A stretch of DNA of 34,516 nucleotides from Oligoflexales bacterium (GTDB lineage Bacteria; Bdellovibrionota_B; Oligoflexia; Oligoflexales; Bog-1112), in NCBI GenBank assembly GCA_045106415.1, contig JBGCEP010000071.1:1-34516 (forward strand), read 5' to 3'. Every line of letters begins with the position of its first letter. Position 1 is the first letter of the stretch. Made by a program: the position numbers and the translations under genes. The notes beneath the pieces are model-generated. The model saw only the letters and a list, made by a program, of their open reading frames with translations, ran no database searches and had not been told where the DNA came from. This document shows positions 27,412 through 31,714 of the stretch, in pieces.

Positions 27412-28830
27412 TTGAAGGATATTCTTCACATCATGATATCGCTCACTTTAACAGCATGTGCTGTGGGACAAAGCCCTTCAACGAAAAGCAATGGTGAGCA
27501 AGGTCATCCGACACCTTCTTCCACCTCTCATCAAAGTAAAGACATCAGCACAAATGATCACAAAAAAAACCAAGATGATGCACTTTCACTCTCACTCGTC
27601 AGAGAAAAAATAAATCCTCATGACTTAAAAATAACAGGGCTTGTCGCTGGGTTGGGTAGACGCGGTGAAGCTCAAGGCCTCAACCCTCTTGTTGGGTTTG
27701 TGTCCTATAGCGTCGATGCTCGGTCAGATTATATAAAATACAGAGCGTGCGTCCAAAAAAGTTCAGACAGTGATTCATCAGGCAGCGTATCACAAATCGA
27801 CGGGTGCCATTCAGGACAAACTCGTTTTAATGAATTTATCTTACCGGTTTTTGTAGAGGGAAGTGTCGAAGTCCAGGCAGAAGCTTGCGTCGATTCAGAA
27901 CGATCCACAACACAAAACCCTTGTGGGCCAGTTGCAGTGACGACATTTCAACAACCTAAAAATGTCGACATTGTTTTGCAGCCCCTTCTCAACGAAAGAA
28001 ACCGGTACTTACGTGAACTTGAAGACATCTCAGTTGACGTCGAAAATATACTACGAGAATATCAAAAAAACATACAGATATGCGAAGCAAAAGGATCTGT
28101 AAATCCACAGTTTAAAAAACTTGTTTCTGATTATCTAGCCATGGGAAGCAGTCTTATTCGGATGTCATCCGCTTATTACGGCTCTCCAAAAATACGCCCA
28201 TTATTAGGAGAACATGCCGGTGAAGAAGGTAAAAACACCGAAGAACAAGGGGACCTACAGCTTCTAAACGAGAGCCCTAAAGGTGTCGCTCATGACATCA
28301 AATCTCTTGGTTTAGCAAAAAAATCAATACGCCAAGATCATGAAAAATTAAATGACTTTTTTCAGCAGTTCGGACTCGTCACAAGCCTACAACTCATTCC
28401 TTACCAACACTCTTCTTACGTTCGTGCTGTTGAAGGTTCTTCAAGCGTGATTGGACTCGTATTCTCGGTCGAGCAGGCAATCATTGTGACAGCCTCTATT
28501 GATATTCTTCTTCTCCGATCTGACGAAGATATCTATGGAAAATACCATAGCCTTAAAAATCCTGAGGGAGATCCTGATAACCGACCAACCTGCCCCATCC
28601 GCGAAAAAGTTGTCTACCATATGGGCGTCTTATTTGGTGAACCGAATTTAAACGGAGGGTGCTATTCTCAAGGAGTCCCATTTAAGGTGAATTCCGCAGA
28701 CACTCTGACAAACTCATCCGCTGGCAGATCTTTTAAAAGCTGTGGACTTGTTATGAAAATACGAGAAAAGCTAGAAGCTGTTGAAGAAAAAATTCAAAAA
28801 AGGTGCCCAACATGTCTTACGCTACCATAA
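27412..28830 (+). CDS. Lipoprotein, paralog 1 of a tandem three-gene family
   Basis: TTG start after aagga; lipobox LTAC; SDYIKYRAC..C..ACVDSERS..C domain, coiled coil, hydrophobic segment. Confidence 0.8.
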   Translation: MKDILHIMISLTLTACAVGQSPSTKSNGEQGHPTPSSTSHQSKDISTNDHKKNQDDALSLSLVREKINPHDLKITGLVAGLGRRGEAQGLNPLVGFVSYSVDARSDYIKYRACVQKSSDSDSSGSVSQIDGCHSGQTRFNEFILPVFVEGSVEVQAEACVDSERSTTQNPCGPVAVTTFQQPKNVDIVLQPLLNERNRYLRELEDISVDVENILREYQKNIQICEAKGSVNPQFKKLVSDYLAMGSSLIRMSSAYYGSPKIRPLLGEHAGEEGKNTEEQGDLQLLNESPKGVAHDIKSLGLAKKSIRQDHEKLNDFFQQFGLVTSLQLIPYQHSSYVRAVEGSSSVIGLVFSVEQAIIVTASIDILLLRSDEDIYGKYHSLKNPEGDPDNRPTCPIREKVVYHMGVLFGEPNLNGGCYSQGVPFKVNSADTLTNSSAGRSFKSCGLVMKIREKLEAVEEKIQKRCPTCLTLP

Positions 28831-30518
28831 TTTTTCTTTTCTTAATCGGGTGCTCAGGACAAAACGCTCCATCACCTGGTGATAAGAAATTACAGCATGA
28901 TGCTTCAGCAGATAATCATACTGAAGATCTGTCAAATGATATCAATAACGGTGATACCCAGCTTGCCGATGTTCCAGAAGTTCAAAGACTTGAAACAATT
29001 TCTCAACTGCGACTCGACACCAATGAATTCTCTGTCACAGGACTCGTAGTGTCTCATCTCACTCTCAATGATCACCCCATTTTATCTTTAAGCTACGATA
29101 TGTCGAGCGAAGCGGATTATGTCCAAGTTTTAAGGTGCCGAGATGCACTTCGCATTGAAGGTGAAACCATGGAACTCGATCAAGCTCTTGCTATTGATGA
29201 TCAAGGAGAAAGAGAACAAGCTTTTCGAAGTAACTTATTCTGGGAAAACGCACGAGAGAACTGCGCAATCATCGCTGATAATTTTATTCGTAAGACGATG
29301 CTCGATAGCTTTGCTTCTACTGGAGAATATTTTTACCTAGCTCGTTCTTGTGTGACTTCATCACGCTTGGCAATAGAAGTTGAAGGGCAGACATCTCGTA
29401 ACTGCAGTCGCATCATCGAAAAATCATCATCAATCATCTATAATAATCAAAGAAGCCAAGATGTTCTGGAAGCCATGGAGGCTTTAACCTGGCAAATTGA
29501 TAATGAAAACAAAATCCTTGGTGATATCCGCACAAAAACAGAAGAACTCAGTCGAACCTTACTTGTTTGCCAAAAAAGAGAAGAAAAAAGAATCGTAAGC
29601 TACGCTAAAGCACGCGCTCTTGCAAACGTTGTTGCTCAGGGGCTTGGTATTTTCACAGGCCTCGGCCAACTCAAAGGTTCCTTCAAAGAACTGACTCCTC
29701 TTAACAAAACAACAAAAATCAACGGTCTCAATAATGGCAAAGACATCAAATACACGTCCAGAACACGTGGGGTTGATGGTGGAGAAGAAACGGTTACTCA
29801 ATACAGCGGGTCAGATTTAAAGTTCTCACAGCAAAATATCAGTAATCTCATCCGAAATCGTAAAATGCAAACTATTCCTAACGGAAAAAGCCAATCTTTA
29901 AGTCATGACGACGCTCTTCAGCAACTCAACTCCGCAAGCGGGCCTTATACTCTGTCGGCTATACGTCATGTCCGTAACTCAAAAGGCGCAACGGAAAATC
30001 TTACAGTTTTTGGAAAAGATAGCAAAGGCCGCGACGTTTCACTCAGCGCACGAAGGTCTAATGTTGAAGGAACAGAATGGAAGCTCGAAAGAAATCTACC
30101 TGGTGAAGGGAATGATTATGGTGTTGTTTGGGGGCGATCAAAAGACTCTATGGTTTTTCGAGACAATAAATCTGAGTTTTTACCTGCGAGTGAGAGCTTT
30201 CAAAAATCAGGCTTACTTAGTTCTTTAGTCTCAGGACGCGGTGGTTTTAATAATCGAAATGTCGAACTCAGTTCGTTAGCTGTCATTCAAGCAGCTCGAC
30301 AAGCAACTATTATGCCTTTAGTCACAACAGAGACCTTTGCATCTATCTTTACACAAGGTTCTCACATCAAAACAAACTGTGTTGAAGCAGAAAAAAAAGA
30401 AAAAGAGCTCGACATTCTCACTTCACAGCTCGATCAAAGCTATCAATTAAGACAAAAATTGGAAGAACTAGCGGATGTGAGAATCACTCAATGGCGCCAG
30501 TCTCAAGTTTCACCATAG
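28812..30518 (+). CDS. Lipoprotein, paralog 2, with a large insert in the hairpin tip
   Basis: Lipobox LIGC; ADYVQVLRC..C..SCVTSSRL..C; coiled coil; ALANVVAQGLGIFTGLG; overlaps paralog 1 by 19 nt. Confidence 0.82.
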   Translation: MSYATIIFLFLIGCSGQNAPSPGDKKLQHDASADNHTEDLSNDINNGDTQLADVPEVQRLETISQLRLDTNEFSVTGLVVSHLTLNDHPILSLSYDMSSEADYVQVLRCRDALRIEGETMELDQALAIDDQGEREQAFRSNLFWENARENCAIIADNFIRKTMLDSFASTGEYFYLARSCVTSSRLAIEVEGQTSRNCSRIIEKSSSIIYNNQRSQDVLEAMEALTWQIDNENKILGDIRTKTEELSRTLLVCQKREEKRIVSYAKARALANVVAQGLGIFTGLGQLKGSFKELTPLNKTTKINGLNNGKDIKYTSRTRGVDGGEETVTQYSGSDLKFSQQNISNLIRNRKMQTIPNGKSQSLSHDDALQQLNSASGPYTLSAIRHVRNSKGATENLTVFGKDSKGRDVSLSARRSNVEGTEWKLERNLPGEGNDYGVVWGRSKDSMVFRDNKSEFLPASESFQKSGLLSSLVSGRGGFNNRNVELSSLAVIQAARQATIMPLVTTETFASIFTQGSHIKTNCVEAEKKEKELDILTSQLDQSYQLRQKLEELADVRITQWRQSQVSP

Positions 30519-30526
30519 GAAAAACC

Positions 30527-31714
30527 ATGAAGTTTTCTGCTGTTTTTTTCATTCTTTTCATCGGTTGCCAACCCACATCACCCTCTCAACCTGAAAATGA
30601 TGTTTCTTCAAAAAATGAACTCAAAACCCAACCTGACCCTAATGTGAATGAACCTACTGAAGAAGCACTGGATAACCTTGACGCTATCGACAGTACATCT
30701 CTTGAGCTTATTGGAGACCTCAACCCTTTAGACGCAGCCCTTAAAATAAGCACTCCAACACTTGAAAACATTGCTGCTATTCAAGATGTCAAAGCACCTA
30801 GTTTTTCCATTAAACTTGAAAATGCCGATTTTTATCAAATTTTAAGATGCCAATCCGACTATCAAATAAGAGACTATCGAGAACAAAGCATCTTTGAGCG
30901 TCGACAAGCTTGGAAAGAGGCTTTTAACAACTCTTATTCATGCTCCTTAATCGCCCGCGAAGGTGTGAACGCCATTTTTCAAGACCTAGCTCTTCAAACA
31001 GGAAGCTTTCGATATATTATCAACCCGTGCGTCTCTGAAACAAGATCCTCAACTGGCCAACAAGACTGCTCATACCAACTGGCCATCAGCCCTGTCATTG
31101 AAATGCAGTCACCATTTAAAAAATTAGAAAGAGAAATTTATGCAGAGTTTCAAGATCTCCAGTCTCAAATTACAGCTCGATACCAAAGAGCTGAAACAGT
31201 CGTCGAGCGACTCGCTCAAGTTCAGACAAAATGTAACTATGAATGGGTAGACCGCCAAATCTACCTCACTCACCTCAAAGGTATCCTCAGTGCTGGAGCC
31301 ACTCTTCTCATAGGAGCTAAATTTGGATTTAGCAATTTCATGTATTTGTTCATACCCTCTATCGTTCTTCAGACCGTCACCCCTTTTGTCTTTCCTGGTG
31401 AGGGAGAAGGAAGTTATCAAGGGCCTGAATGCAAAGAAGCACGCATCTACCAATCAAAACTAAGAGAAATTATGGATAGAAGTTGGTTTGAAGAATCTCA
31501 AAGCCAAATGGTCACACTTATCGATAAACTTGTTACAATTCATCAAGGACAAATTCAGCTCGATGAAGACATCCTAAAAAAACATACTGAGGGTCTTCAA
31601 AACTACGTTTTACGGGATAATTCTGGACCTGAGCTCGATGACTACCTCACAGGTTTAAGTCAAGGCCAAGCTATTAAACTCCCGACTATTCAGAACGAAT
31701 CGCCAAGTGAATAG
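30527..31714 (+). CDS. Lipoprotein, paralog 3, with an uninterrupted hydrophobic hairpin
   Basis: ATG 30527 after agga; lipobox FIGC; ADFYQILRC..C..PCVSETRS..C; coiled coil; ~40 aa hydrophobic stretch. Confidence 0.82.
   Translation: MKFSAVFFILFIGCQPTSPSQPENDVSSKNELKTQPDPNVNEPTEEALDNLDAIDSTSLELIGDLNPLDAALKISTPTLENIAAIQDVKAPSFSIKLENADFYQILRCQSDYQIRDYREQSIFERRQAWKEAFNNSYSCSLIAREGVNAIFQDLALQTGSFRYIINPCVSETRSSTGQQDCSYQLAISPVIEMQSPFKKLEREIYAEFQDLQSQITARYQRAETVVERLAQVQTKCNYEWVDRQIYLTHLKGILSAGATLLIGAKFGFSNFMYLFIPSIVLQTVTPFVFPGEGEGSYQGPECKEARIYQSKLREIMDRSWFEESQSQMVTLIDKLVTIHQGQIQLDEDILKKHTEGLQNYVLRDNSGPELDDYLTGLSQGQAIKLPTIQNESPSE

Follow-up and report, generated by a model that had tools for sequence, protein, structure and literature searches.

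The A, B and C lipoprotein genes

The locus under study lies on contig JBGCEP010000071.1 of an Oligoflexales bacterium (assembly GCA_045106415.1), within a stretch of 34,516 nucleotides (nt) that was analysed as a whole and is referred to here as the window. It consists of three adjacent lipoprotein genes, designated A, B and C, which occupy positions 27412-31714 of the forward strand and which an earlier note, made from the sequence without database searches, had likened to a surface-anchored tripartite pore-former or translocon. The products share one body plan, and the genes for B and C are paired in almost every locus in which we found them. The three genes are laid out as follows.

27412-28830, forward strand: gene A (F3 family), an open reading frame (ORF) of 472 amino acids (aa) with a TTG start; AlphaFold2 (AF2) mean predicted local distance difference test score (pLDDT) 53.9
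28812-30518, forward strand: gene B, an ORF of 568 aa from an ATG start; lipobox Cys14
30527-31714, forward strand: gene C, an ORF of 395 aa from an ATG start; lipobox Cys14; AF2 mean pLDDT 72

Given these TTG, ATG and ATG starts, the ORFs of A and B overlap by 19 nt and those of B and C are separated by 8 nt, confirming the tight coupling that the earlier note had claimed; a second possible start for B is the GTG at 28803. A Shine-Dalgarno-like AGGA or AGGTG is positioned 6-7 nt 5' of each of the three starts. The note had also assigned a lipobox to every product, and each indeed begins with a signal peptide that ends in one: LTAC in A (residues 13-16, Cys16), LIGC in B (residues 11-14, Cys14) and FIGC in C (residues 11-14, Cys14), with the lipobox Cys invariant in the family alignments of all three proteins. 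Recognized by pattern only, these lipoboxes mark A, B and C as putative lipoproteins that would be exported through Sec and lipidated at the lipobox Cys.

Relationship of the three proteins

B and C are recognizably similar as single sequences (BLASTP E 7e-9 over about 198 aa, covering B residues 1-185), and comparison of their family alignments with hhalign returns a probability of 99.8% (E 2.8e-28). No significant similarity was detected by pairwise BLASTP of A with B or C (E 0.15 and 0.21, respectively), and the paralogy of A therefore rests on profiles, with hhalign probabilities of 97.1% for A and B (E 5e-11, 248 columns) and 85.6% for A and C (E 5.6e-6). The underlying family alignments contained 13 sequences for A, 22 for B and 21 for C. 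Pairwise alignment of hidden Markov models was the comparison that the earlier note had proposed for its claim of paralogy, and the outcome upholds that claim: as judged from the profiles, A, B and C are three paralogs, with A the distant one.

Invariant cysteines and a shared body plan

The earlier note had described a recurring cysteine pattern, which proved correct at all of the positions that it listed. The common plan comprises four cysteines in the N-terminal domain, or head (C113, C132, C159 and C171 in A; C109, C151, C180 and C198 in B; C108, C139, C168 and C181 in C), one that ends a long helix (C224 in the NIQIC motif of A, C253 in TLLVC of B and C236 in VQTKC of C) and one ahead of the last helix (C444 in FKSC, C523 in KTNC and C302 in GPEC, in the same order). 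Cysteine counts of the mature proteins are all even, at 10 for A and 6 each for B and C. The four head cysteines are invariant in 13 of 13 members of the A family and 22 of 22 members of the B family, and all six body cysteines of C are kept in 130 of 130 near-full-length C-type representatives. Disulfides presumably form between these residues. The domains that could be delimited are listed below; C was modelled by AF2 with its 21-sequence alignment.

30719-31111, forward strand: C head, residues 65-195, an FN3-like beta-sandwich with four invariant Cys; AF2 block pLDDT 79-96
31112-31276, forward strand: C outgoing stalk helix, residues 196-250, with invariant Cys236; AF2 helix 196-262, pLDDT 72-95 to about residue 250
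31277-31396, forward strand: C putative hydrophobic hairpin tip, residues 251-290, two roughly 19-residue segments of which the first is Gly/Ala-rich; pLDDT below 50
31424-31615, forward strand: C returning stalk helix, residues 300-363, starting at invariant Cys302; AF2 helices 300-315 and 318-363, pLDDT 87-93 (residues 301-340)
27607-27954, forward strand: A four-Cys beta-sandwich, residues 66-181; AF2 block pLDDT mostly 76-95, falling to 45-56 near residues 86-89 and 123-129
28995-29426, forward strand: B four-Cys domain, residues about 62-205, homologous to the C head (BLASTP)

In the model of C, residues 1-60 form a disordered tether that leads into the beta-sandwich; conservation among the C-type proteins is highest in this sandwich, which has one inserted helix (residues 122-134). 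Beyond the four head cysteines, R107, D153 and Y163 are also present in 99-100% of the 130 representatives. The head may be akin in fold to FN3 domains, which were the best Foldseek matches of the model (E 5.2e-3, probability 0.98; weak matches, none reaching E <= 0.001), and a comparison with 48,161 chains in VIA-align likewise returned titin FnIII (Z 8.0, root-mean-square deviation (rmsd) 3.1, 92 residues aligned), at a level that the tool calls common. The head differs from FN3 and Ig-like domains in its inserted helix and its four invariant cysteines, and it has no Pfam FN3 or Ig match.

The head is followed by an antiparallel stalk of two helices. The top VIA matches were generic two-helix hairpins (top Z 8.7), again in a range that the tool calls common, and they span residues 194-342 of the model. 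Cys236 and Cys302 accordingly lie close to where the confident part of the stalk ends distally, consistent with a disulfide staple, and such a Cys236-Cys302 link at the far end of the stalk is predicted from the model. The earlier note had suggested AlphaFold modelling as a check for a helical hairpin, and for C this returned a two-helix stalk with a hydrophobic tip. Between residues 255 and 291 the pLDDT falls below 50.

A follows the same layout, with a first helix at residues 189-226 (block pLDDT about 61-82) that ends with C224, a long variable region, a hydrophobic segment, C444 and a last helix at residues 446-464, its model being too weak beyond the first helix to judge whether a helix-bundle tail is present. 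A complex prediction for B (residues 55-568) with C (residues 60-395), made with both alignments, scored 0.00 against a mark of 0.32 and weighs neither way on binding. The single body plan that the earlier note had proposed for three paralogous lipoproteins is supported: a flexible tether comes first, then an FN3-like beta-sandwich presumably rich in disulfides, and last a two-helix stalk with a tip between invariant cysteines.

Hydrophobicity of the tips

The regions between the helix Cys and the Cys ahead of the last helix were assessed by Kyte-Doolittle hydropathy in a 19-residue window (KD19), with a segment threshold of at least 1.2. Two further features were located in this way.

28429-28521, forward strand: A hydrophobic segment, residues 340-370; KD19 maximum 1.87, AF2 confidence below 50
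29571-30377, forward strand: B inter-Cys region, residues 254-522, opening with a Gly-rich hydrophobic segment (residues 269-287)

In the window's C, the hydrophobic segment extends over about residues 245-292 and reaches a KD19 maximum of 1.69. Tips of the C family were compared across 115 of 150 representatives, the remaining 35 having been left out for lack of a recognizable anchoring motif or Cys count. In 111 of these 115 proteins, 55-56 aa separate the last head Cys from the helix Cys; the loop from Cys to Cys has a median length of 66 aa (60-80 aa in 88/115). The median of the maximal KD19 is 1.68, with values of at least 1.6 in 71/115; at least two GxxxG motifs occur in 72/115 and the pattern [GAS]xxxGxxx[GAS] in 91/115. 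A typical C loop opens with approximately 15 amphipathic residues and continues with two hydrophobic helices, the first of them Gly-rich, that are joined by a tight turn, and the window's C fits its family in both the length and the hydrophobicity of the tip.

The other two families are more variable. In the B family the loop ranges from 27 to 269 aa (21 proteins), and a hydrophobic segment about 15 residues past the helix Cys is common. The loop of the window's B, at 269 aa, is the longest because of a polar insertion of roughly 200 aa (residues about 290-480, 29679-30251) that has no family match and is absent from most homologs; one other B protein, from locus L022, carries a long but different insertion. 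The sole segment of the window's B that reaches the threshold is that at residues 269-287, with a maximum of 1.24. Loops of the A family range from 31 to 231 aa, and a segment of at least 1.2 is found in 4 of 13 members. The Gly/Ala-rich hydrophobic region that the earlier note had ascribed to all three proteins therefore holds as a family trait for C and for the first segment of B but not for A, and with a weak tip in B and no conserved one in A, the notion that all three insert is unsupported.

Novelty and distribution of the family

No Pfam family is matched by A, B or C at E <= 1, NCBIfam and PADLOC gave only sub-threshold noise for the three, and profile searches of all PDB sequences with the C- and B-family alignments reached a best E of 0.23. 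The ESM Atlas gave nothing usable, with feature scores of 0.76 at best and no structure template-modelling (TM) score above 0.32. We found no prior description in an open full-text library, as judged from titles and abstracts. The claim that the family is undescribed is thus borne out by the lack of Pfam, NCBIfam and PDB matches. Homologs are few: of 1.84 billion representative proteins, searched exhaustively with a profile, only 306 clusters were recovered at E <= 1e-3, 278 of them at E <= 1e-10. A word-index search found only the query itself with a single sequence (3021 candidates) and the query plus one protein with a profile.

The lipoprotein family is limited to Oligoflexia-type bacteria. 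Loci in public metagenome-assembled genomes carry the labels Oligoflexales, Silvanigrellaceae/Silvanigrella or Bdellovibrionota, or loosely Delta-, Zeta- or Betaproteobacteria or Pseudomonadota, these lineage labels being taken from the submitters' titles. The window's phylum was represented by 131 genomes, which all belong to the same class; 46 of them match the C profile, and the matches are concentrated in particular families: f1, which is the window's own (15 of 15 genomes), f5 (4/4), f2 (2/3), f3 (2/2), f9 (2/2), f17 (2/2) and f19 (18/33). The profile has no match in f12 (0/12), f13 (0/22) or f15 (0/22), nor in smaller families, f4, f6, f7, f8, f10, f11, f14, f16 and f18 among them.

The window's genome (2.95 Mb in 89 contigs, 94% complete) contains a second locus on contig 31 (23618-27143), where the order is F2-B-C with 4-nt overlaps and the products are an F2 lipoprotein of 307 aa, a B-type protein of 458 aa and a C-type protein of 410 aa. 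The glycine-zipper hairpin is clearer in this C-type protein than in the window's C. Divergent A-like (F3-like) lipoproteins are encoded elsewhere in the same genome (C17:29058-30209, C58:11012-13005 and C31:4281-5564), the first of which matches the A-family profile with E 4e-14, indicating that the superfamily is larger than the three families analysed here. The A-like gene on C58 lies directly 3' of an F2-like gene.

The B-C pair as the conserved unit

Gene order was compared across 36 unique loci, namely the window, the contig 31 locus and 34 loci from other genomes. In 35 of the 36 the next gene after B, on the same strand, is C; the exception ends at a contig edge. The gap between the two genes is often -4. 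An A-type (F3) gene lies directly 5' of B in 11 loci and elsewhere in the cluster in three more. The linkage of homologs, in place of the unlinked singletons that would have spoken against the earlier note, is therefore observed for B-C in 35/36 loci and for A-B-C in 11/36. The lipoprotein family F2 accompanies B-C in 13/36 loci; it is unrelated to A, B and C, as hhalign similarity is confined to the signal peptide, and it has no Pfam match. The fullest form of the cluster is F2-F2-F3-B-C, and 19 loci have B-C only, one of them as B-C-C. Three B/C-type genes in a row were seen in that locus, L047, and at G004:C179:2127-5781.

The flanking genes differ between loci, the only recurrent ones being those of the lipoprotein families F2, F3(A), B and C, and no secretion-system, immunity-like, polysaccharide-export or transporter genes recur beside the 36 loci. 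With variable flanks and a fixed B-C core, the conserved unit is the B-C pair with optional lipoprotein companions. The suggestion that the apparatus delivers the exported proteins encoded nearby in the window finds no support, since the neighbours change from locus to locus.

A candidate resident envelope complex

At a probability of roughly 45%, we favour the reading that they are subunits or paralogous variants of a resident heteromeric envelope lipoprotein complex, with hairpins in the cell's own membrane and a way of working like that of two-transmembrane (2TM) glycine-zipper lipoproteins. In the model, a C monomer consists of a two-helix stalk and a small sandwich and would have nowhere to bury 40-50 hydrophobic residues; because the tip could not be hidden and the protein would be tethered from synthesis, a constitutive two-helix membrane hairpin is the simplest reading. 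This hairpin, of about 2 x 19-20 residues and often glycine-zipper-like, may reside in the outer membrane by analogy with SlyB and YfgH, its hydrophobicity equally allowing retention in the inner membrane. The invariable pairing of the genes for B and C suggests a heteromer formed through the stalks, in which B, and A where present, would pair with C and bring in tips of lower hydrophobicity along with long variable loops. The projecting stalk would be about 40 residues long, with the long tether holding the head back, and the conservation of the head suggests a conserved partner in the periplasm, an envelope component to which the beta-sandwich heads may bind. Such a complex could organize or stabilize the envelope.

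The closest working analog is found among the outer-membrane lipoproteins SlyB, YfgH, OsmB and YiaD, which are described as having a 2TM glycine zipper, with 11-mer rings for SlyB and membrane oligomerization proposed for lipoproteins of this type (10.64898/2025.12.22.696046). The A/B/C proteins resemble them in combining a predicted lipid anchor with two adjacent hydrophobic helices, rich in small residues, beside a folded periplasmic part, and GxxxG-type tip motifs are found in most C-type proteins (at least two in 72/115). They differ in that the C hairpin ends a putatively disulfide-stapled two-helix stalk of approximately 40 residues that follows an FN3-like head and a long tether, and in that the system would be a heteromer in which two to three paralogs are joined by F2 companions. 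The C-family tips, at a median KD19 of 1.68, are probably more hydrophobic than those of the SlyB type. A C19orf12-like Pfam match was obtained for 3 of 21 C-family members (best E 0.0018), and the hairpin of the contig 31 C-type protein gave a sub-threshold hit to the OmpA-like PdsO model TIGR03789 (E 4e-4, 20 bits, cut-off 152). By sequence comparison C, B and A are not members of the SlyB/YfgH families, and the likeness is one of working analogy only.

Periplasmic adaptors such as EmrA and AcrA offer a second point of comparison, as envelope proteins in which an alpha-helical hairpin stands beside beta domains. EmrA is in the VIA list (Z 7.7, rmsd 2.9, 114 residues aligned), within the range that is common for helical hairpins. 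AcrA is lipid-anchored, and the hairpin tips of adaptors are polar and dock to an outer-membrane channel. A, B and C differ from this group in having no HlyD-family Pfam match and no transporter genes recurring nearby.

The distribution speaks for a resident complex, as the genes behave like core genes: all 15 genomes in the window's family have a match, and the window's own genome has two loci. Several observations weigh against it. No Pfam glycine-zipper model (for example, Rick_17kDa_Anti or Gly-zipper_Omp) is matched by A, B or C at E <= 1 or by the 21 C-family members at E <= 0.1. The window's C is Gly/Ala-rich in the first tip segment only, and with the low pLDDT of the C tip its hairpin is deduced from sequence. 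The A family does not conserve a hydrophobic tip (4/13), and that of the window's B is weak. A hairpin with KD19 values of at least 1.6 would tend to be retained in the inner membrane, weakening the SlyB-like outer-membrane picture, and a core distribution is also compatible with a weapon used by all members of the lineage.

Alternative explanations

The alternative that survives best, although we regard it as unlikely, is that there is no obligate complex and that A, B and C are independent, fast-diverging paralogs, such as adhesins or binding proteins, which are adjacent through tandem duplication only. The occurrence of further divergent relatives as singletons in the same genome, for example C17:29058-30209, and the high variability of tethers and loops agree with such a history. 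Uncoupled duplicates would, however, be expected to scatter or to be lost singly, whereas B and C are distinct old orthologous groups with frequent 4-nt overlaps that keep their order in 35/36 loci across at least two orders.

Somewhat less probable still is the apparatus envisaged by the earlier note, in which A, B and C would assemble like a tripartite alpha-pore-forming toxin on the cell surface. Such a heteromeric machine, held by lipid and tether and joined elsewhere by F2 companions, would on contact drive its hairpins by means of the stapled stalks into the membrane of another cell, producing a pore or a fusion bridge for predation or host interaction; it would follow the ClyA principle with an unrelated fold and sequence. 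PMC6602965 describes a hydrophobic hairpin tip able to span the bilayer as the principle of the ClyA family (AhlABC, SmhABC, Hbl, Nhe, YaxAB/XaxAB), whose adjacent paralogous genes encode long antiparallel helices with a hydrophobic head, and a head of this kind is present in C, partial in B and found in 4/13 of the A family. This gradation, from a strong tip in C through a partial one in B to a variable one in A, recalls the differing hydrophobic or amphipathic heads of AhlA, AhlB and AhlC (PMC6602965). The genes are likewise adjacent and coupled, and by its record titles the lineage belongs to Bdellovibrionota-type bacteria, described in one abstract (PMC8067016) as a phylum composed of obligate predators.

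Against a pore-former stands the architecture of the proteins. ClyA-family toxins are secreted in soluble form and have a tail of 4-5 helices that conceals the head, as a beta-tongue or in a tetramer (PMC6602965). A, B and C are instead lipoproteins in which a beta-sandwich head adjoins a two-helix stalk, with invariant cysteines and nothing to hide the tip. The C model has no 4-5-helix tail, the lipoboxes argue against a soluble form, and the combination of a lipid anchor with a tip that could not be hidden in the monomer argues for constitutive insertion. No toxin family was matched in Pfam by A, B or C at E <= 1, Hbl L1 appeared in the PDB profile search with a non-significant E of 1.1, and no ClyA-, Hbl- or XaxA-type chain is among the Foldseek and VIA matches listed, which is not an exclusion. 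Presence in 15/15 genomes of the window's family also fits poorly with a weapon, as does the lack of recurrent immunity-like or secretion genes near the loci. The kinship with ClyA, Hbl and XaxAB that the earlier note had raised consequently finds no support in sequence, in the two-helix stalk and sandwich of C or among the fold matches listed, and the likeness it saw to translocators of type III secretion systems fares no better, as the SseC family (PF04888) matches 1/21 C-family members (E 0.098) and no protein of the window.

The least probable alternative, that oligomerized hairpins of C and B line an alpha-helical outer-membrane channel for export or uptake, with the loops of A and B outside and helical-barrel lipoproteins such as Wza as the functional comparison, could draw on the [GAS]xxxGxxx[GAS] pattern in 91/115 C tips and on a hairpin-turn loop length that is hypervariable in B (27-269 aa) and A (31-231 aa) and fixed in C, as expected of surface-exposed loops, but no polysaccharide-export or transporter genes recur by the loci and no such channel is among the Foldseek and VIA matches listed. 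Rather than a released toxin, A, B and C most likely form a membrane-embedded envelope complex.

Upstream region and other genes of the window

The earlier note had placed the three genes under a sigma-28-like promoter, for which a motif does exist.

27349-27375, forward strand: sigma-28-like motif TAAG-N15-ACCGATAC, a pattern match 36 nt before the A start; doubtful as a functional site

The sigma-28 (FliA) promoter consensus is of the type TAAA-N15-GCCGATAA and is shared with flagellar late genes; the motif agrees with this consensus at 9 of 12 positions. A relaxed form of the pattern has 19 matches in the 2.95-Mb genome, where by our own arithmetic approximately 13 are expected with uniform base composition. 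The genome encodes FliA (282 bits) and eight flagellin genes, and the motif occurs in none (0/8) of the 220-nt regions upstream of the latter. Some lineages with the B-C pair lack flagellin (f5, 0/4; f9, 0/2; and five f1 genomes), and others without the pair encode flagellin (f12, 12/12; f13, 22/22; f15, 22/22). With the two distributions unrelated, a flagellar link is unlikely, and control by sigma-28 is doubtful. The relaxed pattern lies 20-41 nt upstream of six genes with lipoprotein-type signal peptides (C13:10759, C16:3892, C18:119409, C26:128320, C68:2186 and 27349 of the window, gene A being among the six), none of them flagellar; this shared pattern could be a promoter for exported proteins, or chance. 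Within 27000-32000, scans for sigma-70 promoters and terminators found 7 and 3 candidates, compared with shuffled expectations of 8.7 +/- 3.0 and 4.2 +/- 2.3, respectively.

The other genes of the window lie outside the conserved B-C unit. Upstream of A, on the reverse strand, 25960-27186 encodes, divergently from A, a 408-aa protein whose N-terminus resembles that of prepilins (G/YSLFE; Pfam N_methyl E 0.008, below cut-off) and whose large C-terminal part has no family match. A link with pilins was considered and rejected: a prepilin pattern was flagged in 2 of 22 loci, the window and L013, and the latter was judged spurious from its sequence context, so that only the window's case convinces. 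On the other side, a hybrid response-regulator/histidine-kinase gene (31686-32804, reverse strand) is convergent with C, the 3' end of which it overlaps by 29 nt; kinase genes like it (cluster F7) adjoin the B-C pair in locus L015. An IS66-family transposase gene follows near the contig end (32843-34255, reverse strand; DDE_Tnp_IS66 E 2.8e-47).

Further from the locus, 2059-3959 (reverse strand) holds two small cupredoxin genes beside a gene of the di-haem cytochrome c peroxidase/MauG type (CCP_MauG E 1.8e-54), and 8901-13295 (reverse strand) encodes a 1464-aa protein with C-terminal RCC1-like repeats (WD40_RLD E 6.6e-71). Several large ORFs beside the latter gene (13628-15094, 15146-18364 and 18646-22307) have no Pfam match, and 22480-24228 (reverse strand) encodes an exported protein of 582 aa with Lnb_N (E 3.2e-24), DUF7844 and weak metallopeptidase-type matches.

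Implications

The cell envelope of Oligoflexia and their relatives has hardly been studied, and the module described here is lineage-wide, being present in every genome searched in the window's family (15/15), often in two copies. Its architecture, in which a lipid anchor, a tether, a disulfide-bonded beta-sandwich, a stapled stalk and a hydrophobic hairpin would be combined, matches no curated family or solved structure. If A, B and C form an envelope-organizing complex, they would extend the emerging class of glycine-zipper lipoproteins to a heteromeric, stalked form, and if a contact-dependent pore-former were true, it would be a new type of weapon. For either case, the B-C pair is a well-defined target for expression, localization and cryo-electron microscopy.

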